A DNA stretch of 57,604 nucleotides from Clostridiales bacterium UBA4821 (GCA_002402315.1 DHFP01000270.1:1-57604); one strand, 5' to 3'; shown: positions 2,905 through 53,702, numbered from the stretch's first letter. Numbers and translations: made by a program. Notes: generated from the letters alone by a model not told the origin.

Positions 2905-3381
2905 TTATTTATGGATTTCAACAACCTTGAGATTAATAATCCCATCGGGAACAGTTACTTTAATTTCACTTCCTACTGCTTTACCTACTAAAGCACTGCC
3001 GACCGGAGACTCATTGGATATCTTATAGCTGTTTGGATCGGCCTCTGCAGATCCAACTATTGTATACTCAACTTCTTCATTATCATCCATGTCAAGAACT
3101 TTTACCTTAGCACCCAAACTGACCACATCCGTATTGATTTCATCTTCATCAATAACCTTTGCATGTCTGAGCATGTTTTCGATATGTGCAATCCTTGCTT
3201 CGACGTAAGCCTGATCATTCTTTGCTTCATCATACTCGGCATTCTCCGAAATGTCTCCAAACGAAAGCGCCGATTTTATTCTCTCTGCTATTTCTCTTCG
3301 TTTTACGCTTTTTAAATTCTCCAGTTCATCTTCCAGCTTTTTTAAACCTTCATAGGTTAATATAACTTCCTTTCCAACCAT
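2905..3381 (-). CDS. greA: transcription elongation factor GreA
   Basis: [17 protein letters not shown] coiled-coil N-terminus, [13 protein letters not shown], and a C-terminal FKBP-like domain. Start placed at the ATG at 3381 behind AAAGGAGAG; the ORF track begins at 3435. Confidence 0.9.
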
Positions 3382-4560: not shown

Positions 4561-4653
4561 ATTTAACCTGCCTATTATGTGTTTCTATGTATATATATTT
4601 ATATTTATAATAATTATTCCTGTTAAACAAAGTAATTTAAAAAGGCAAGTGGG

Positions 4654-4719
4654 GGCAAGTGGGGACGGTTCTTGACTTGCTAGTTCTGGCTAGCAAGTCA
4701 AGAACCGTCCCCACTTGCC
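4654..4719. repeat. perfect palindrome with 30-bp arms and a 6-nt spacer (REP/foldback-like element)
   Basis: ggcaagtggggacggttcttgacttgctag ttctgg ctagcaagtcaagaaccgtccccacttgcc. Sits in a divergent promoter region, so it is not a terminator for either neighbour. An extra tandem ggcaagtgggg lies at 4644-4654. Confidence 0.85.
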
Positions 4720-4804
4720 TTAAATCTTTTGAAAATTAGTCTGGACATCAAGTAAAATCATTGATATTATATTAATGAATGTATTGTGCAGTAGGAGGTT
4801 AATA

Positions 4805-5269
4805 ATGTTTCAAAGGAATTTGAATTCAGGTACTTCTAATTTTAATACTCTGGTAGGAAGCGGCGCCACCTTGGACGGAGACTTTAATGCTGATGGTAAG
4901 GTAAGGATTGATGGGAAAATAAAAGGCCATGTCAGAATAAACGGTGATTTAATCATAGGTGAAACTGCATTAATTCTTGGTAATATATCAGCCGGCAATG
5001 TTGACCTGGCAGGTACTGTTGAAGGTAATATGTACTGCAAAGGCCAGCTTAAACTTGCCACGACGGCAAAACTTACCGGCGATATCCAGGTAAAAGGACT
5101 CTCTATTGAAGAGGGCGCACAGTTTCAAGGTATATGCAGCATGTCCAATCTTGAAAAGGTTTGTAAGGTTAGCAGTACACTTCCGGTGGACTCAGACGAA
5201 ACTGCCAACCGTTTGAAAAAGAAACCTATTATTAGTAGACCTCAATTTAAAGACTCAACTAACTTGTAG
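4805..5269 (+). CDS. bactofilin-family polymer-forming cytoskeletal protein
   Basis: Repetitive beta-helix sequence (DGKVRIDGKIKGHVRINGDLIIGE..GNVDLAGTVEGNMYCKGQLKL..TGDIQV). Start at the ATG at 4805 behind AGGAGG. Confidence 0.8.
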   Translation: MFQRNLNSGTSNFNTLVGSGATLDGDFNADGKVRIDGKIKGHVRINGDLIIGETALILGNISAGNVDLAGTVEGNMYCKGQLKLATTAKLTGDIQVKGLSIEEGAQFQGICSMSNLEKVCKVSSTLPVDSDETANRLKKKPIISRPQFKDSTNL

Positions 5270-48606: not shown

Positions 48607-49698
48607 TCAAGCCCTTAGAAAAAATTTCCCCGGTAATTGTTTAAGAATACCTTTCAACTCCAACATTGTCAGCACCGAATTTATCTTCTGAATATTATGT
48701 CCCGTTCTCCTTAATAAAATATCTATATGTACAGGCTCAGCGCCTATATTATTTATAATTTTTCTTTCATCCTCGTCAAGATTACTATATTGTTGTTCAT
48801 TTTTCTTTTCTGACACAACCTTGATAGTCCTTAACTCAGCAAATTCTTCCAGGACATCTTCAACGCATGTCACCATTTTTGCACCTTCTTTTATTAGTCT
48901 GTTTGTACCCTTGCTTTCATAACTGGTTGCATTTCCAGGAGCTGCAAACACCTCTTTGCCCTGCTCAAGGGCAAAATCCACAGTAATAAGCGACCCGCTC
49001 CTATCTCCTGCTTCAATTACAACAACGCCCATTGAAAGGCCGCTGATTATCCTGTTCCTCGCAGGGAAATTGCCTGACAGCGGTTTCATTCCTACTGCAA
49101 ATTCTGAGATTACTGAACCAGATTTTGATACCTGGTCTATGATCATCTTATTCTCTGGTGGATAAGGAATGTCTACTCCACATCCTAGTACAGCAATAGT
49201 TCTTCCCCCAGCTTCAAGCGCTCCCCTATGAGCAAAGGTATCTACACCTCTTGCCATGCCGCTTACCACTGTAATACCCCTAATAGCCAGTTCAAAGGCA
49301 ATTTCCTTTGCCATATTCAAACCATATATAGTTGCTTTCCTGGACCCAATAATAGCAACAGCCCTATCATCTGATTTCTCAAGCTTGCCCCGTACGTAGA
49401 GCACTGGAGGAGGGTCATAAATGGCTTTCAGATGAACCGGATAATCATCATCAACCGCCCGCAATACATCTATGCCAATTTCCTTTATTCTATGCATATA
49501 AAATTCAAGGTTATCCCTATATTTTTGGTTAAGTACGGTATATATATTCTTTCCCAGCCCCTGGACTCTAAACAGTTGGTTATAATTTGCATTCCAAACC
49601 TCATACGGTGAACCAAAATACTCAATGAGTTGATTAAACCTGCGTGCACCTATTCCCGGCAGGGAGCTTAGCCATACCCAGTATTTAAGATCGTCCAT
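48607..49698 (-). CDS. dprA: DNA processing protein DprA (Smf)
   Basis: Rossmann-like core GSRKAT..GMARGVDTFAHRGALEAGG..AVLGCG; C-terminal wHTH. Confidence 0.92.
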   Translation of the reverse strand: MDDLKYWVWLSSLPGIGARRFNQLIEYFGSPYEVWNANYNQLFRVQGLGKNIYTVLNQKYRDNLEFYMHRIKEIGIDVLRAVDDDYPVHLKAIYDPPPVLYVRGKLEKSDDRAVAIIGSRKATIYGLNMAKEIAFELAIRGITVVSGMARGVDTFAHRGALEAGGRTIAVLGCGVDIPYPPENKMIIDQVSKSGSVISEFAVGMKPLSGNFPARNRIISGLSMGVVVIEAGDRSGSLITVDFALEQGKEVFAAPGNATSYESKGTNRLIKEGAKMVTCVEDVLEEFAELRTIKVVSEKKNEQQYSNLDEDERKIINNIGAEPVHIDILLRRTGHNIQKINSVLTMLELKGILKQLPGKFFLRA

Positions 49699-49762
49699 AT
49701 ATCCACCACCTTTTTACAAACCTATACTAACAAATAAATTGTTTGTTGTCTATTAGTGAGAT

Positions 49763-50477
49763 AGGAAAAACCTCTTCGGTTTTTCCTGCCACCTTTTCCC
49801 GCTGGTTCCCTATGCTCCTTGATAAGAGCGTCTAGATTGTGCTCCATCCTTCCCGGGGTCGCAATCAATTGCCCTCCTTGGCAAGTGATTGCTAAATTCG
49901 ACGTCCTGTCGAATTTCCCCCTCCAGTCTTCCGCACAATCAAGACGCTCTATATCTCGTCACAACGGGAATATCCCGTAATTCCTTCGGAGTTACTAAAA
50001 AGCAACTTGGAAGATATACTGAATATCCCGTTATTCCGAGCATTAGAGATTCTTATATTTTATGGAGGAGTGAAGGGGGTAACTTGCCAAGGAGGGCAAG
50101 TTAAATGGCTATCAGACATGGAGGTCTGTTAGCCATGACCCCGGAAGGACGGAATAAAATATTAGAAGCTCTTAGCGAGGAATTCAGGGATTAAGCAGAG
50201 AGGATTCCAAAAGGAGTACGAAGGGTGCTCCTTTTGAAGGCTGCTTTGAATACAATTTAAGGAATACAGGATATGATTTGTAGTGTGCACCCTGCACAAT
50301 AGCTTCAAAATTTTTGTGCAACTTGCCAATAGATTTGACCTGTCCAAAGGGTGTATAATAAAAGTATATTAACATTTTTATATTATCACGAACACGCTTT
50401 TCGAGCACTCTCATGGCGAGATGTATGGATAGGAGATTTTTCTCTTACGAGTATATACTCGCTTTTTGCTTTTTTGG
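49763..50477 (+). ncRNA. candidate large structured non-coding RNA or leader, family unknown; strand tentative
   Basis: Locally GC-rich: by hand count 33 of 60 bases at 49801-49860 and 29 of 60 at 49861-49920 are G or C, in an AT-rich genome. Only stop-riddled or atypical ORFs. Helices: 49869-86/50082-99 (18 bp, perfect); 49848-60/50137-48 (12 bp plus a bulge); 49826-42/49933-49 (16 of 17); hairpins at 49763-85, 49894-916, 49964-78, 49984-50013, 50105-36 and 50208-36. Two G-U wobbles fit the plus strand only. Confidence 0.4.
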
Positions 50478-50537
50478 CTCAGGCGCTCGTGTTGAGGATA
50501 TATATTTATATATTATAAACTGAAAGGGGATAAAAAA

Positions 50538-50939
50538 TTGAAAAGGATTAAACCATGGGCGATTCTAACTCTAATTATTCTGGGTGCAGTTATTGGTGCT
50601 TTCGTTACTACTCAAGTCCAAGCTAAGCTAGAGCAAAAAAATCAAATTCAACAAAGAATCCAAACAATCCAGAGTGAGTTAGAAAAAGACCCTAATACGG
50701 TCGCTGTTGACGGCTGTATTATAGTCAGGAAGTTTGGGAGTTCTCTCCAGGCAAGCTATGACCAGCAGCTCTATACGCTGTTTGGTTATCCTGATGGAGA
50801 CCAGAATCCTCAACCTTTGATTAATGCATGCCGTAAGTGGGCCAAGACTAACAATTATCAAGCTGAATTTGATGGACCACCGCCAACAATGGCGTGCAAG
50901 AACCCCGTAGTGTATATGAAACTGTTACCTAAAAAGTAA
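50538..50939 (+). CDS. orphan membrane-anchored or exported protein, 133 aa
   Basis: TTG start with AAAGGGGA 8 nt upstream. N-terminal hydrophobic helix KPWAILTLIILGAVIGAFV, then a Gln-rich coil and a Cys-containing domain. No family recognised. Confidence 0.55.
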   Translation: MKRIKPWAILTLIILGAVIGAFVTTQVQAKLEQKNQIQQRIQTIQSELEKDPNTVAVDGCIIVRKFGSSLQASYDQQLYTLFGYPDGDQNPQPLINACRKWAKTNNYQAEFDGPPPTMACKNPVVYMKLLPKK

Positions 50940-50980
50940 TTACGTTCAAAATAAGGATATAAGAAAGAGAGGTCGTAAAA

Positions 50981-51151
50981 ATGGAAAAATTTTTAGGTCA
51001 AATTGCAAATTGGGCAGTACCCGCAGGTTTGTTTTTTACTATAGGAGTGTTTGTTGTACAACATGCTCCCAAAATAAATTTAGACTATCTTTACATACCT
51101 GCCATAATCGCTGGAGCAATTTGGTTCGGCGGTAAATACTACGGTAAGTAG
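50981..51151 (+). CDS. unlisted 56-aa two-TM peptide (below the ORF-track cutoff)
   Basis: ATG at 50981 behind AGAGAGG. Translation MEKFLGQIANWAVPAGLFFTIGVFVVQHAPKINLDYLYIPAIIAGAIWFGGKYYGK, stop at 51149-51151, with a terminator immediately after. Confidence 0.5.
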   Translation: MEKFLGQIANWAVPAGLFFTIGVFVVQHAPKINLDYLYIPAIIAGAIWFGGKYYGK

Positions 51152-51162
51152 TAGTGTTATTT

Positions 51163-51189
51163 TTACTCCCCTTCAAGGGAGTATTTTTT
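51163..51189 (+). terminator. rho-independent terminator of the two-gene plus-strand unit
   Basis: tactccc/gggagta stem, 6-nt loop, then ttttttt. Confidence 0.7.
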
Positions 51190-51193
51190 TGTT

Positions 51194-51221
51194 GAGTCAG
51201 TGGGCGCTGCCCCACTGACTC
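51194..51221. terminator. second GC-rich hairpin between convergent units
   Basis: 11-bp stem gagtcagtggg/cccactgactc with loop cgctgc, 5 nt from the stop of the minus-strand gene. The U-run is only moderate on the plus side. Confidence 0.4.
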
Positions 51222-51225
51222 TGTT

Positions 51226-51441
51226 CTATTTCACTATTTTCCCAACAATCTCTTCCTGGGAAGTTAACCTATTATCAATATGTAAAATATCACCCCAAAT
51301 ACCCTTTACATCCCTCTTGACTTCCTTGATATCAATCTCGACTTCCTTTATATCCTTTTTCAATTCCTTAACGTCAGTCTCAATAATATCTAACTTTGAT
51401 AATTTTTCAAGAACCAATTTTTGAAATTCTTCGCTGTTCAT
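51226..51441 (-). CDS. orphan 71-aa coiled-coil protein
   Basis: ATG at 51441 behind GGAGG with an 8-nt spacer. Heptad-like repeat sequence DVKELKKDIKEVEIDIKEVKRDVKG. The longer ORF-track start at 51531 lacks an RBS. Confidence 0.55.
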   Translation of the reverse strand: MNSEEFQKLVLEKLSKLDIIETDVKELKKDIKEVEIDIKEVKRDVKGIWGDILHIDNRLTSQEEIVGKIVK

Positions 51442-51811
51442 TTCTGCTACCTCCAAAATGAAACTATTTTTATTATACCCTATTTCTAATTTTAAACAAT
51501 AAGGTAAAATATAAAAAAATACCCACCACAAAGGGTGGAATCAAAAAAAATTTATCGGGATTGATATTAATAATACATCAATCTCATACTTTAATGTTAA
51601 TATCATCGTGAAATGCACTTTTTTGACACTGAACAGCAAGAAATATAATTTTCACATCAAAAAATATGTCGTTTGAAAGAAATCCAACATTTTTCATAGA
51701 ATATATATATAATAGTATATATACTTGTATGTTCTATTTCTATTACAGTTAAGAATTATTCAATTTAAACGATAAAATAAGTTTACATGCTGCAAGAAAG
51801 GAGTAAATGCC

Positions 51812-52117
51812 ATGAGGTATTTCTGCATAACAGAATTAGATAATAAAAAACATTTTTTTCTCTCTAACATTAAACCCGATAACAATAAAATTGAATCTTA
51901 TGAACTTCTGGCCGACATGTCCAAAATCCCTGACCTGCAAAAAAATATAGTTATAATAAATTCATCTGCTTTTGCACCCTCAACACACAATCTATTATTT
52001 GTTTACATGCTTCTTTCAGATTTGTGCGTTGAAGAAACTGCCAAAAAGTATTTCACTGAGAAAGCATCCACTTTAGCTATTGAGCACTTAGATTCTTCCA
52101 TAGGTAATAAAAACTAA
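51812..52117 (+). CDS. orphan 101-aa cytoplasmic protein
   Basis: AAAGGAG RBS 8 nt upstream; no recognised motif; a terminator follows. Confidence 0.5.
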   Translation: MRYFCITELDNKKHFFLSNIKPDNNKIESYELLADMSKIPDLQKNIVIINSSAFAPSTHNLLFVYMLLSDLCVEETAKKYFTEKASTLAIEHLDSSIGNKN

Positions 52118-52145
52118 GTCTTTAATGAACCTAAAGAATGGTTAA

Positions 52146-52170
52146 GAGGGGCTTTGCCCCTCCCTTTTAT
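52146..52170. terminator. bidirectional terminator (orphan gene / comM)
   Basis: gaggggc ttt gcccctc followed by ccttttat; overlaps the comM stop codon. Confidence 0.65.
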
Positions 52171-53702
52171 GTATTCCAGAACTTTCTGTCAAGACTCCTG
52201 TATTGTATAGCCTCGGCAATATGAGGCATCTGAATATTTTCACTCCCCTCAAGGTCGGCAATGGTTCTTGCTACTTTTAGTATCCTATTATGTGCCCTTG
52301 CACTCAAGCCCATCCTTTCAAAAGCATCTCTCAATATATTCTTCTCGCGTTCTCCTAATTTACAGAACATCGATATCTGAGAGGGCTGAAGCTGTGAATT
52401 AAAGAATATTTTCATGCCCTTGTATCTATCCAATTGAATCTTTCTTGCATTATTAACTCTATCCCTTATTACCGCAGAGCTGTCTGTACTGATACCGGAA
52501 TCAAGTTCGCGATATTTTACGGGCGATACCTCCATGTGGATATCAAATCTGTCCAGCAAGGGACCGGAAATCTTGCTAATGTATTGCTGTACCTGGCTTG
52601 GTGTGCATGTACAGTTCTTTGCCGGATCAAGTAAAAATCCGCACTTGCATGGATTCATGGAAGATATCAGCATGAACCGTGAAGGATAGGATAAGCTGGC
52701 ATTTATTCTTGATATTGTTACCATTCCATCCTCCAATGGCTGTCTCATTACCTCCAGTGCAACCTTTTGGAATTCGGTCAGTTCATCAAGAAATAGTACT
52801 CCAAAATGTGCCAAACTGATTTCTCCAGGCTTTGGTATCCGTCCCCCTCCTACCAGGGACACTGCAGATACAGTATGATGGGGTGAACGAAACGGTCTGG
52901 TTGTTATCAGTGAAGTCTTTGGAGGTAATACTCCTGCTATACTGTGTATTTTTGTAACTTCTAAAGCTTCATCAAATGTCATATCCGGAAGAATTGTCGG
53001 AAGTCTCCTTGCCATCATTGTCTTACCAGAGCCCGGTGATCCAATCATAAGACAATTGTGAGCTCCGGCCGCAGAAACCTCAAGTGCCCTCTTGATATTC
53101 TCCTGACCTTTTACATCCGCAAAATCAATATCATACTTGCAATTCGACTTAAATAAGCTGTCTATATCCACAAAATATGGCTGTATAGGATTATCTCCAT
53201 TCAAGTGGTTAACTATATCCAGAACATTTGAGCAAGGTAATACTTCTATGCCCTTTACCACTGCCGCTTCTTTGGCATTTTCAATTGAAATTACCAGCTT
53301 TTCCATTCCAGATTTGAAAGCGGATATTGCCATAGGGAGTACACCTTTTATTGGCTTAATCTTTCCATCTAAAGAGAGCTCCCCTAAAAATACGTACTTA
53401 TCCAAATCTTCAATAGGTATTTGGCCTGTAGCACTCAATATAGCTAATGCAATAGGAAGATCGTATGACGGGCCTTCCTTTTTAGTATTGGCCGGAGCTA
53501 AATTGGCAGTTATTCTTTTTACAGGAAATTCAAACCCGCTGTTCCTTATAGCTGCTCTTACCCTTTCTTTTGATTCCTTGACTGCAGTATCTGGCAGGCC
53601 TACAATATCAAAAGCAGGCAGTCCGGGTGAAATATCAATTTCAACTTCAACTATGTAGCCGTCTAATCCGATTAAACCAGCACTATTTATCTTGCCTAGC
53701 AT
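52167..53702 (-). CDS. comM: YifB/ComM family Mg-chelatase-like AAA+ protein
   Basis: Lon-like N-domain, Walker A GSPGSGKTMMARR, Walker B VLFLDEL, C-terminal Mg-chelatase subunit ChlI-like region. Confidence 0.9.
   Translation of the reverse strand: MLGKINSAGLIGLDGYIVEVEIDISPGLPAFDIVGLPDTAVKESKERVRAAIRNSGFEFPVKRITANLAPANTKKEGPSYDLPIALAILSATGQIPIEDLDKYVFLGELSLDGKIKPIKGVLPMAISAFKSGMEKLVISIENAKEAAVVKGIEVLPCSNVLDIVNHLNGDNPIQPYFVDIDSLFKSNCKYDIDFADVKGQENIKRALEVSAAGAHNCLMIGSPGSGKTMMARRLPTILPDMTFDEALEVTKIHSIAGVLPPKTSLITTRPFRSPHHTVSAVSLVGGGRIPKPGEISLAHFGVLFLDELTEFQKVALEVMRQPLEDGMVTISRINASLSYPSRFMLISSMNPCKCGFLLDPAKNCTCTPSQVQQYISKISGPLLDRFDIHMEVSPVKYRELDSGISTDSSAVIRDRVNNARKIQLDRYKGMKIFFNSQLQPSQISMFCKLGEREKNILRDAFERMGLSARAHNRILKVARTIADLEGSENIQMPHIAEAIQYRSLDRKFWNT

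Follow-up and report, generated by a model that had tools for sequence, protein, structure and literature searches.

Between comM and dprA in Clostridiales bacterium UBA4821: a probable old islet of small genes restricted to one uncultured Clostridia family

The DNA between comM and dprA was analysed in a window of 57,604 nucleotides from Clostridiales bacterium UBA4821 (GCA_002402315.1 DHFP01000270.1:1-57604), which is contig C112 of a metagenome-assembled genome (2.98 Mb, 271 contigs, 92.6% complete). The two genes are separated by 2,468 bp (49699-52166) holding two structured RNAs of the TwoAYGGAY family and four short genes, here called p133, p56, p71 and p101 after the length of their products in amino acids (aa). 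A preliminary description had taken this stretch for an accessory insertion. Comparison with related genomes indicates that the spacer is probably an old, vertically inherited small-gene islet restricted to one uncultured family of Clostridia.

The comM-dprA distance was compared between five genomes of the window's family and 36 genomes of the order outside that family. The two genes lie at most 70 bp apart on one strand in 16 of the 36 non-family genomes and within 160 bp in two more. The remaining non-family genomes include a few gaps of 0.4-11 kb; in the others comM was not found, or the two genes lie far from each other or on separate contigs. In each of the five family genomes the interval is enlarged: it measures 2.5, 3.3, 13.6 and 16.0 kb in four of them and is divided between two contigs in the fifth. 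Because 16 of 36 non-family genomes keep the tight pair, the gap is a derived state, and because all five family genomes have it, the split is old. The expanded interval contains p101 and an operator module in all family genomes, and in two of them (G001 and G003) 11-13 kb of it is occupied by ordinary genes of transport and metabolism, among them those for an ABC transporter, an asparaginase-like gene and cyanophycin genes. The separation of about 2.47 kb given in the preliminary description was confirmed at 2,468 bp between flanks assigned by Pfam, and the proposed insertion holds in the sense that the pair is split relative to the order and that its content varies among relatives. It does not hold as a discrete, recently acquired cassette, since the enlarged interval is found in all five family genomes. 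A presence/absence polymorphism of the whole block was not observed among close relatives, where only sub-parts vary. The genes of the interval are as follows.

50538-50939, plus strand: p133, 133 aa, a single-pass membrane protein with an N-terminal segment at residues 4-27 (hydropathy)
50981-51151, plus strand: p56, 56 aa, a hairpin membrane protein with two transmembrane segments at about residues 11-29 and 36-51 (hydropathy)
51226-51441, minus strand: p71, 71 aa, a soluble, heptad-rich coiled coil with an ATG start behind a GGAGG ribosome-binding site
51222-51512, minus strand: p71 mini-cassette with its own predicted promoter (-10 box at about 51465-85; repeats D1 and I7)
51812-52117, plus strand: p101, 101 aa, soluble and convergent with comM (open reading frame (ORF) call, hydropathy)

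The four ORFs of the preliminary description were recovered by ORF calls and hydropathy, and gene callers gave the same 133, 56, 71 and 101 aa on other assemblies. The identical block was found in two other samples, and SRR5324138 and ERZ27315072 carry it.

The gene p101 is a core gene of the window's family and is restricted to that family. Homologs with 46-53% identity were present in all four family relatives, and the gene was encoded by only 4 of 185,579 species-representative genomes. A word-indexed profile search of 5.8 billion protein clusters returned merely 18 clusters, none of them named or carrying a Pfam domain. In all four metagenomic contexts that were fetched (five contigs), p101 lay either between dprA and comM or between dprA and cargo adjoining comM. 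The ratio of non-synonymous to synonymous substitution rates (dN/dS) was 0.23 at a dS of 0.31 against the related locus L057, where ComM is 95% identical to that of the window and comM gave 0.08 on the same pair; p101 is under purifying selection. An AlphaFold2 model of p101 with a mean predicted local distance difference test (pLDDT) score of 89.4 and a predicted template modelling (pTM) score of 0.79 comprised three strands and three helices (beta3-alpha3), for which no structural neighbour was found in the PDB (best E 1.5) or BFVD (best E 0.55). Residues C5, H14 and C72 are invariant and H59 is nearly so, a pattern of conservation that hints at metal binding.

The other three proteins have relatives in the same interval of diverged genomes. 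In L064, L062 and L068 the interval encodes homologs of p71, p56 or p133 (E values between 2e-21 and 1e-7) with changed order and orientation, and the ComM proteins of these relatives are 77-80% identical to that of the window. The p133 protein was modelled with a pLDDT of 80.7 as a helix spanning residues 6-50, forming a stalk to about residue 50, followed by a small alpha/beta domain in which an A-x-(R/K)-K-W motif is conserved. One clear homolog (P0020, 38% identity, E 1e-21) emerged when 1.8 billion representatives were searched exhaustively with phmmer, and its gene lies 760 bp from a truncated comM. Within the interval, L062 encodes a 140-aa relative of p133 (4581-5003, E 1e-7), and L064 encodes a 123-aa protein that has the architecture of p133 and the KKW motif in common with it. 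A fold search with the p133 model found no neighbour in the PDB, and no match below E 0.2 was obtained for p133 and p101 against the PDB or for p101 against BFVD. The p56 gene is co-oriented with p133 across a 41-bp spacer and has a homolog in the L064 interval (2909-3115, 41% identity, E 2e-10), as does p71 (2359-2595, 50% identity, E 2e-21); in L064 the order and orientation of these two genes differ from those of the window.

The locus L057, which is a contig end, joins the hairpin at 51196-51221 straight to position 51513 so that the whole 291-bp p71 unit is missing, and p71 is also missing in G001-G004. Judged from such comparisons, the small genes turn over singly. Three 21-nt (7-aa) repeats lie in tandem within the p71 coding region (51303-51365, 76% identity), and through them the coiled coil may lengthen or shorten by whole heptads. 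Paralogs of the four proteins were not found in the window's own genome, except for a weak p71-like gene on contig C133. The accessory status proposed in the preliminary description is only partly supported: p101 is always found in the interval, p133, p56 and p71 have homologs in the same interval of diverged relatives, and a unit of plus-strand TwoAYGGAY RNA, operator, promoter and p133 is syntenic across genera. The preliminary description had itself allowed that a block conserved among relatives would be core; such conservation was found for p101 and the regulatory module, and partly for the rest.

Upstream of p133 lies the regulatory module, followed by the leader of the p133-p56 transcript.

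50283-50359, plus strand: operator-promoter module (alignment A1)
50360-50537, plus strand: p133-p56 5' leader with a terminator-like hairpin at 50448-50461 and a T run to about 50475 (terminator scan, folding)

The module consists of a degenerate palindrome GTGTGCACCCTGCACAA at 50283-99, a palindrome TTGTGCAACTTGCCAAT at 50314-30, the motif TAGATTT and a -10 box TATAAT at 50354-59. The roughly 100 bp upstream of p133 that contain it are the sole DNA-level similarity to the family relatives. The consensus is a 17-bp palindrome, TTGTGCAAnTTGyACAA, followed by TAGATTT and by TATAAT about 24 nt after the palindrome. The module was present in every related comM-dprA interval in one to four copies, each located 200-290 nt upstream of a small membrane-protein gene that was p133-type, p56-type or encoded another protein of 66-100 aa with two or more transmembrane segments. 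Promoters of the p133 type have a second palindrome 31-32 bp upstream, and the p71 promoter has only the -10 region in common with the module (repeat I7). With a weak -35 position immediately after its end, the palindrome is most naturally read as the site of a dimeric regulator, and the shared arrangement suggests one regulator common to the membrane-protein genes. The known operators of Rex, CRP/FNR, TnrA/GlnR, LexA and GntR-type regulators were considered, and none matches the 8-1-8 geometry of the palindrome.

A genome-wide scan for the palindrome gave 12 sites compared to 3 in a reversed-sequence control, with no clear functional theme. The palindrome TTGTGCAAnTTGCACAA is perfect at C51:6662, C153:22366 and C166:6094, has one mismatch at C172:14047, and also occurs at C260:49 and 9089. 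Its recurrence suggests a predicted wider regulon. Genes found downstream of the palindrome included four membrane-protein genes of about 125 aa (C51), a 559-aa gene that is helicase-like by eye (C166) and a gene for a 70-aa protein with two transmembrane segments (C172).

The leader hairpin at 50448-75 in the window may act as an attenuator, as predicted from its terminator-like fold. In relatives, the first 125 nt or so of the transcripts from the module form a structure in which a closing helix, AAACGCC/GGCGUUU, and two helices enclose two hairpins, and nine pairs change compensatorily among four sequences. This structure is a candidate for a new cis-regulatory RNA. A covariance model built from it (R1) recovered two more copies at 37.5 bits (E 3e-7) and 20.7 bits (E 0.0075), and R1 occurred as one copy per genome, only at the comM-dprA locus, in three of the five family genomes. 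Copies are located at L047:1427-1549, L051:371-493, L064:2796-2918, L066:4013-4135, L049:16353-16475 and L062:3471-3587; the structure is not in Rfam and precedes small membrane-protein genes.

The preliminary description had noted a structured non-coding block without recognising its family. The block is present, and its family is recognisable as RF01731.

49763-49787, minus strand: hairpin AGGAAAAACC-GAAGA-GGTTTTTCCT, the left end of a dispersed repeat (read from the sequence; kept in C231, C89 and C175)
49812-49964, minus strand: TwoAYGGAY RNA (RF01731, 66.8 bits, E 4e-10, model positions 1-168)
49965-50029, strand not assigned: central 65-bp spacer of the divergent RNAs, with a direct repeat GAATATCCCGTWATTCC at 49968-84 and 50021-37 (repeat D7)
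50030-50186, plus strand: TwoAYGGAY RNA (RF01731, 63.9 bits, E 1.8e-9, model positions 1-168)
50209-50236, plus strand: GAAG-loop hairpin followed by TTTTG (read from the sequence; kept in all repeat copies and in L062)

Both RNAs matched the covariance model over its full length and above the gathering score of 43 bits. The outer stem of the minus-strand RNA is 18 bp long (49825-42 / 49933-50; inverted repeat I5) and surrounds two hairpins with GGA loops; in the two RNAs the outer stems are 18-19 bp and 89-94% complementary. The loops are AAGGAG and AUGGAG in the plus-strand copy and AGGAC and AAGGAG in the minus-strand copy, all of which contain GGA and are not strictly AYGGAY. Perfect 18-bp inverted repeats at 49869-86 and 50082-99, considered as the possible ends of an inverton, are the same GGA-loop hairpin occurring once in each divergent RNA. 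The spacer contains a weak promoter-like site, TTACTA-17-TATACT, that would serve the plus-strand RNA. Each RNA is followed by AGGGA and a GAAG-loop hairpin, and the pair makes an imperfect palindrome of about 490 bp. The hairpins at 49763-49787 and 50209-50236 are predicted to be the terminator-like 3' ends of the minus-strand and plus-strand units, respectively.

The block from about 49762 to its right end at about 50253 is a dispersed repeat with six or more loci in its own genome. Contig C231 has the entire pair with 82% identity over 450 bp, and C89 and C175 have the left-end hairpin together with a plus-type RNA; the ends of these two copies appear inverted, TTCTAAAGYAGTTTC / GAAAACTGCTTTAGAA (by eye, alignment A2). 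In C114 (5283-6512) about 800 bp with a PIN-like gene (164 aa) and a 73-aa ORF separate the centre of the pair from its plus-strand RNA. On C133 (763-3584; L005, a 3.9-kb contig) pieces of TwoAYGGAY lie amid genes with matches to PIN (1.4e-7), an MqsA-like zinc ribbon (3.6e-7), MazE (3e-5) and MazF (PemK, 3e-30), and this contig looks like a small toxin-antitoxin islet built round the repeat. The weak p71-like coiled-coil gene of C133 has the ATAGGGTATAAT promoter in common with p71.

Copy numbers in the family genomes were 6-7 (the window's own), 30, 31, 5 and 0, and such a spread within one family is what a proliferating element typically shows. Neither a target-site duplication nor an associated transposase was found for the repeat. 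The dprA-proximal TwoAYGGAY is missing in the relatives, which are too diverged to define an exact empty site, and the assembly of another sample breaks exactly at the repeat. TwoAYGGAY occurred in four of nine related intervals (G002, G004, L062 and the window's own species) and was missing from the other five (G001, G003, L060, L064 and L066).

When the window was aligned with L062, positions 50020-50545 matched over the RNA, the terminator hairpin, both palindromes, the -10 box and part of the leader, with 73% column identity and compensatory changes in the RNA hairpins (alignment A6). The DprA proteins of the two are merely 57% identical, and because the unit aligns despite this divergence, the plus-strand RNA is regarded as a long-term resident of the locus. 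On this alignment its ortholog in L062 is the copy that precedes the p133-family gene. The 2010 paper on TwoAYGGAY considered it a probable RNA without a cis-regulatory role and with no known function (Weinberg et al. 2010, PMC2864571). All five family genomes encode csrA, which lies at C64:1715-1873 in the window's own, and they include G001, where no TwoAYGGAY occurs. CsrA is the classic binder of GGA loops, and because csrA is also present in the TwoAYGGAY-free genome, a role as a CsrA sponge is neither supported nor excluded.

The flanking genes and the predicted transcription signals complete the layout of the interval.

48607-49698, minus strand: dprA (Pfam DNA_processg_A 1.6e-78, DprA_WH 6e-16)
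49752-49724, minus strand: promoter-like site of dprA itself, TAGACA-17-TAGTAT (promoter scan)
51164-51183 (then a T7 run) and 51194-51221, plus strand: two tandem terminator hairpins closing the p133-p56 unit (terminator scan)
51539-51522, minus strand: terminator hairpin followed by a T7 run (terminator scan)
52146-52162, strand not assigned: hairpin common to the convergent p101 and comM (terminator scan)
52167-53702, minus strand: comM/yifB, intact here (Pfam ChlI, Mg_chelatase and Mg_chelatase_C; Mg_chelatase 2.2e-92)

The scan found five terminator-like hairpins in the interval compared to 1.9 +/- 1.3 in shuffled sequences, recovering the three listed in the preliminary description and adding two. 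The minus-strand hairpin at 51522-51539 would halt read-through from comM or antisense transcription of p101 ahead of the p71 promoter, and the hairpin at 52146-52162 is probably a bidirectional terminator, as predicted from its position. The 51540-51811 segment, about 270 bp between the p71 unit and p101, is very AT-rich (24-25% GC) and about 89% identical to L057, close to the value for adjacent coding DNA; several promoter-like sites and, at 51696-51743, an AT palindrome lie within it.

The comM gene itself is truncated or split in L067 (2059-4931), L068 (1222-1854) and G028 (C41:289504-290664 and C27:54760-55200). In L067 an HTH_3 gene, an Amidase_3 gene and small ORFs come after the C-terminal 129 aa of comM, an arrangement that resembles a prophage end. 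In these relatives comM appears to be an integration hotspot. Two loci, L071 (JBLNBO010000022.1) and L072 (JBLMYQ010000048.1), are labelled in public records as 'Ignavibacteriales bacterium' and 'Deltaproteobacteria bacterium', respectively; they have the comM-dprA-p101 locus in common with genomes labelled 'Clostridia bacterium' and group in the same family of the genome collection that was used, and their public labels look wrong.

Signals of mobility and defence were sought in the interval. ORF calls and Pfam revealed no integrase-like ORF, a tRNA scan no tRNA or transfer-messenger RNA, and a repeat search no flanking direct repeats, in agreement with the preliminary description; the marks of an integrative element (integrase or recombinase, attachment site, flanking direct repeats) were not found. 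As that description had also said, the four proteins belong to no recognisable family, with no significant match in Pfam, PHROG, PADLOC or NCBIfam. The sole PADLOC match was JetA at E 0.021 on the coiled coil, which was treated as noise, and PHROG matches had E values of 4e-4 or higher in coiled-coil regions only. The sub-threshold matches to ZapG, LPP, XhlA, Rz-like spanin and JetA were rejected as compositional, being confined to coiled-coil or transmembrane regions. No DNA or protein match was found in 50,697 phage records, 72,556 plasmids or IMG/VR. A prophage remnant was not recognised in the phage records, IMG/VR or BFVD, and neither a type II toxin-antitoxin system nor a known defence system was recognised in PADLOC, Pfam, NCBIfam or PHROG, where all matches fell below the cut-offs. 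The p56 protein fits a type I toxin in size and hydrophobicity (56 aa, two transmembrane segments). A toxin-antitoxin, abortive-infection or phage-remnant function, which the preliminary description had offered as speculation, found no support in family, phage, plasmid, IMG/VR or fold matches; of the checks proposed there, PADLOC gave nothing significant and the fold search of p133 and p101 gave no neighbour. The comM-dprA interval is probably not a defence or toxin-antitoxin cassette.

The observations can be combined as follows. The close pairing of comM and dprA, usual in the order, would have been lost in an ancestor of the family, and the interval would since then have held the core gene p101 and a shifting set of very small genes, with p133, p56 and other two-transmembrane proteins, and p71 reordered, gained and lost singly. 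Each small gene would be a self-contained unit of promoter, gene and terminator hairpin, and the membrane-protein units would carry one portable palindrome-promoter module, often with the second palindrome 31-32 bp upstream. A single dimer-forming DNA-binding regulator, with its gene elsewhere in the genome, would switch the membrane-protein genes on or off together, and the leader hairpin with its U run (50448-75) would add attenuation. The two TwoAYGGAY RNAs would be separate, divergent small-RNA units of a proliferating repeat, the plus-strand copy being the old resident; they may act in trans by binding a protein through their two GGA loops, and their end hairpins may shield dprA, which keeps its own promoter, from transcription of the islet. 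As to the role of the proteins, our best guess is a family-specific function associated with the envelope.

Several points weigh against this account of the islet. The promoters, RNA ends and attenuator are predictions. The main palindrome of the window (50314-30) is imperfect, with 1 nt missing in its right half, and the palindrome also occurs in other contexts of the genome, including the inside of a terminator-like hairpin at C172. The window's leader is not a member of the R1 family, since no match to R1 was obtained with filters off. The genes p133, p56 and p71 occur together only in the window and L064, and the patchy conservation outside p101 fits an accessory gene pool circulating in the family equally well as vertical descent with loss. 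Only about nine related intervals were available, all from metagenome assemblies, and the statement that a gene is always in this interval rests on that small sample.

Four other explanations were weighed against the vertically inherited islet. A horizontally acquired accessory cassette, whether for toxin-antitoxin, abortive infection or other defence or as a decayed prophage lysis module, would account for the differing content of the interval among relatives and the clean presence or absence of p71; two other TwoAYGGAY loci (C133 and C114) do lie amid type II toxin-antitoxin genes, comM is a prophage target in related strains, and there are sub-threshold likenesses of p71 to XhlA (E 0.03-0.06) and of p133 to an Rz-like spanin (E 0.007). 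These likenesses, however, reflect coiled-coil or transmembrane composition and are far below curated cut-offs. The four proteins have no significant match in the defence, phage and domain collections, in phage, plasmid or IMG/VR records, or to a PDB or BFVD neighbour; integrase, tRNA and direct repeats are lacking, and p101 and the control module are conserved at the locus across the family, which makes such a cassette unlikely. An arrangement of type I toxin-antitoxin kind, in which the small hydrophobic proteins (p56 and the 66-100-aa proteins of relatives) are membrane toxins whose mRNAs are silenced by long structured 5' leaders and in which a neighbouring RNA, antisense or TwoAYGGAY, is the antitoxin, is suggested by the size and two transmembrane segments of p56, by the relatives' leader of about 125 nt, whose long 5'-3' closing helix resembles type I toxin mRNA leaders, and by small units that are gained and lost singly. 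Yet p56 is second in an operon behind p133, which is atypical for type I toxins, the conserved operator suggests transcriptional control by a protein, no antisense promoter or RNA was identified in the sequence, the window leader does not fit the relatives' model, and TwoAYGGAY is missing from several intervals that still have small genes; we give this arrangement little credence.

The spacer could also be a passive dumping ground, enlarged by a repeat resembling a miniature inverted-repeat transposable element (MITE) and by debris, in which most small ORFs have no function. The 0 to 31 copies of TwoAYGGAY per genome within the family, the 82% identity of the pair to C231 over 450 bp and the assembly break at the repeat would agree with this. 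It is nevertheless an improbable explanation of the genes, because homologs of the ORFs are conserved (E values down to 2e-21), purifying selection acts on p101, the two larger proteins gave confident fold models, each unit has its predicted ribosome-binding site, promoter and terminator, and the non-coding control module is kept across genera. There is, finally, a slim chance that the interval is a cassette array, either recombinase-free or served by a recombinase not yet known, in which hairpin-bounded units, each made up of promoter/operator, structured leader, small gene and terminator, are swapped, inverted, gained and lost singly at a fixed hotspot. The TwoAYGGAY elements or the terminator hairpins would then be the recombining joints, and such events would have left their traces in the clean presence or absence of the 291-bp p71 unit, flanked by two terminator hairpins in inverted orientation, in the shuffled gene order of L064 and L062, and in the PIN toxin-antitoxin module within the TwoAYGGAY pair of C114.

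Taken as an old islet of its family, the apparent insertion becomes a family-specific locus, which removes a false lead for the mining of defence and toxin-antitoxin systems. The locus is a compact natural setting in which to study the orphan TwoAYGGAY RNA, with one position-conserved copy beside an operator-promoter-gene unit and sister copies proliferating elsewhere. New are two protein families without known relatives (p101 and p133), which have confident predicted folds and no structural neighbours, and a conserved predicted operator whose regulator could be identified. The RNAs are added members of a known family and no new mechanism is described; the lineage is uncultured, and the wider impact is modest.

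When the pair was compared with the described TwoAYGGAY motif (RF01731; PMC2864571), the shared features were a long outer stem around two hairpins with GGA-containing loops, the lack of a tie to any single downstream gene class and the occurrence in Clostridia, which are among the listed taxa. The RNAs of the window differ in forming a divergent pair in an imperfect palindrome of about 490 bp, each unit with its own GAAG-loop hairpin, in being a dispersed repeat of variable copy number of which one copy is syntenic across genera with a promoter-gene unit, and in having loops that depart from strict AYGGAY. Like repetitive extragenic palindromes (REP), bacterial interspersed mosaic elements (BIME) and MITEs, the block is short, non-coding, structured, multi-copy and intergenic, is often beside terminators, is arranged as an inverted pair and varies sharply in copy number among related genomes. 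Unlike them, it has arms of about 155 nt that match a curated RNA family and is accompanied by neither a target-site duplication nor a transposase, and one of its copies is position-conserved across genera, which does not suggest recent transposition.

Integration of prophages and genomic islands at comM is known, and the neighbourhood studied here is similarly prone to rearrangement, since inserted DNA truncates or splits comM in L067, L068 and G028. In the window, by contrast, comM is intact and the extra DNA lies downstream of it, with no integrase or phage genes. The small membrane-protein regulons of Firmicutes offer a further likeness, in that several genes for mostly membrane-anchored proteins of 56-140 aa stand behind the same palindromic operator-promoter. 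Here, however, the proteins match no described family or fold, and the genes keep to a single site, the comM-dprA interval, in one uncultured family.

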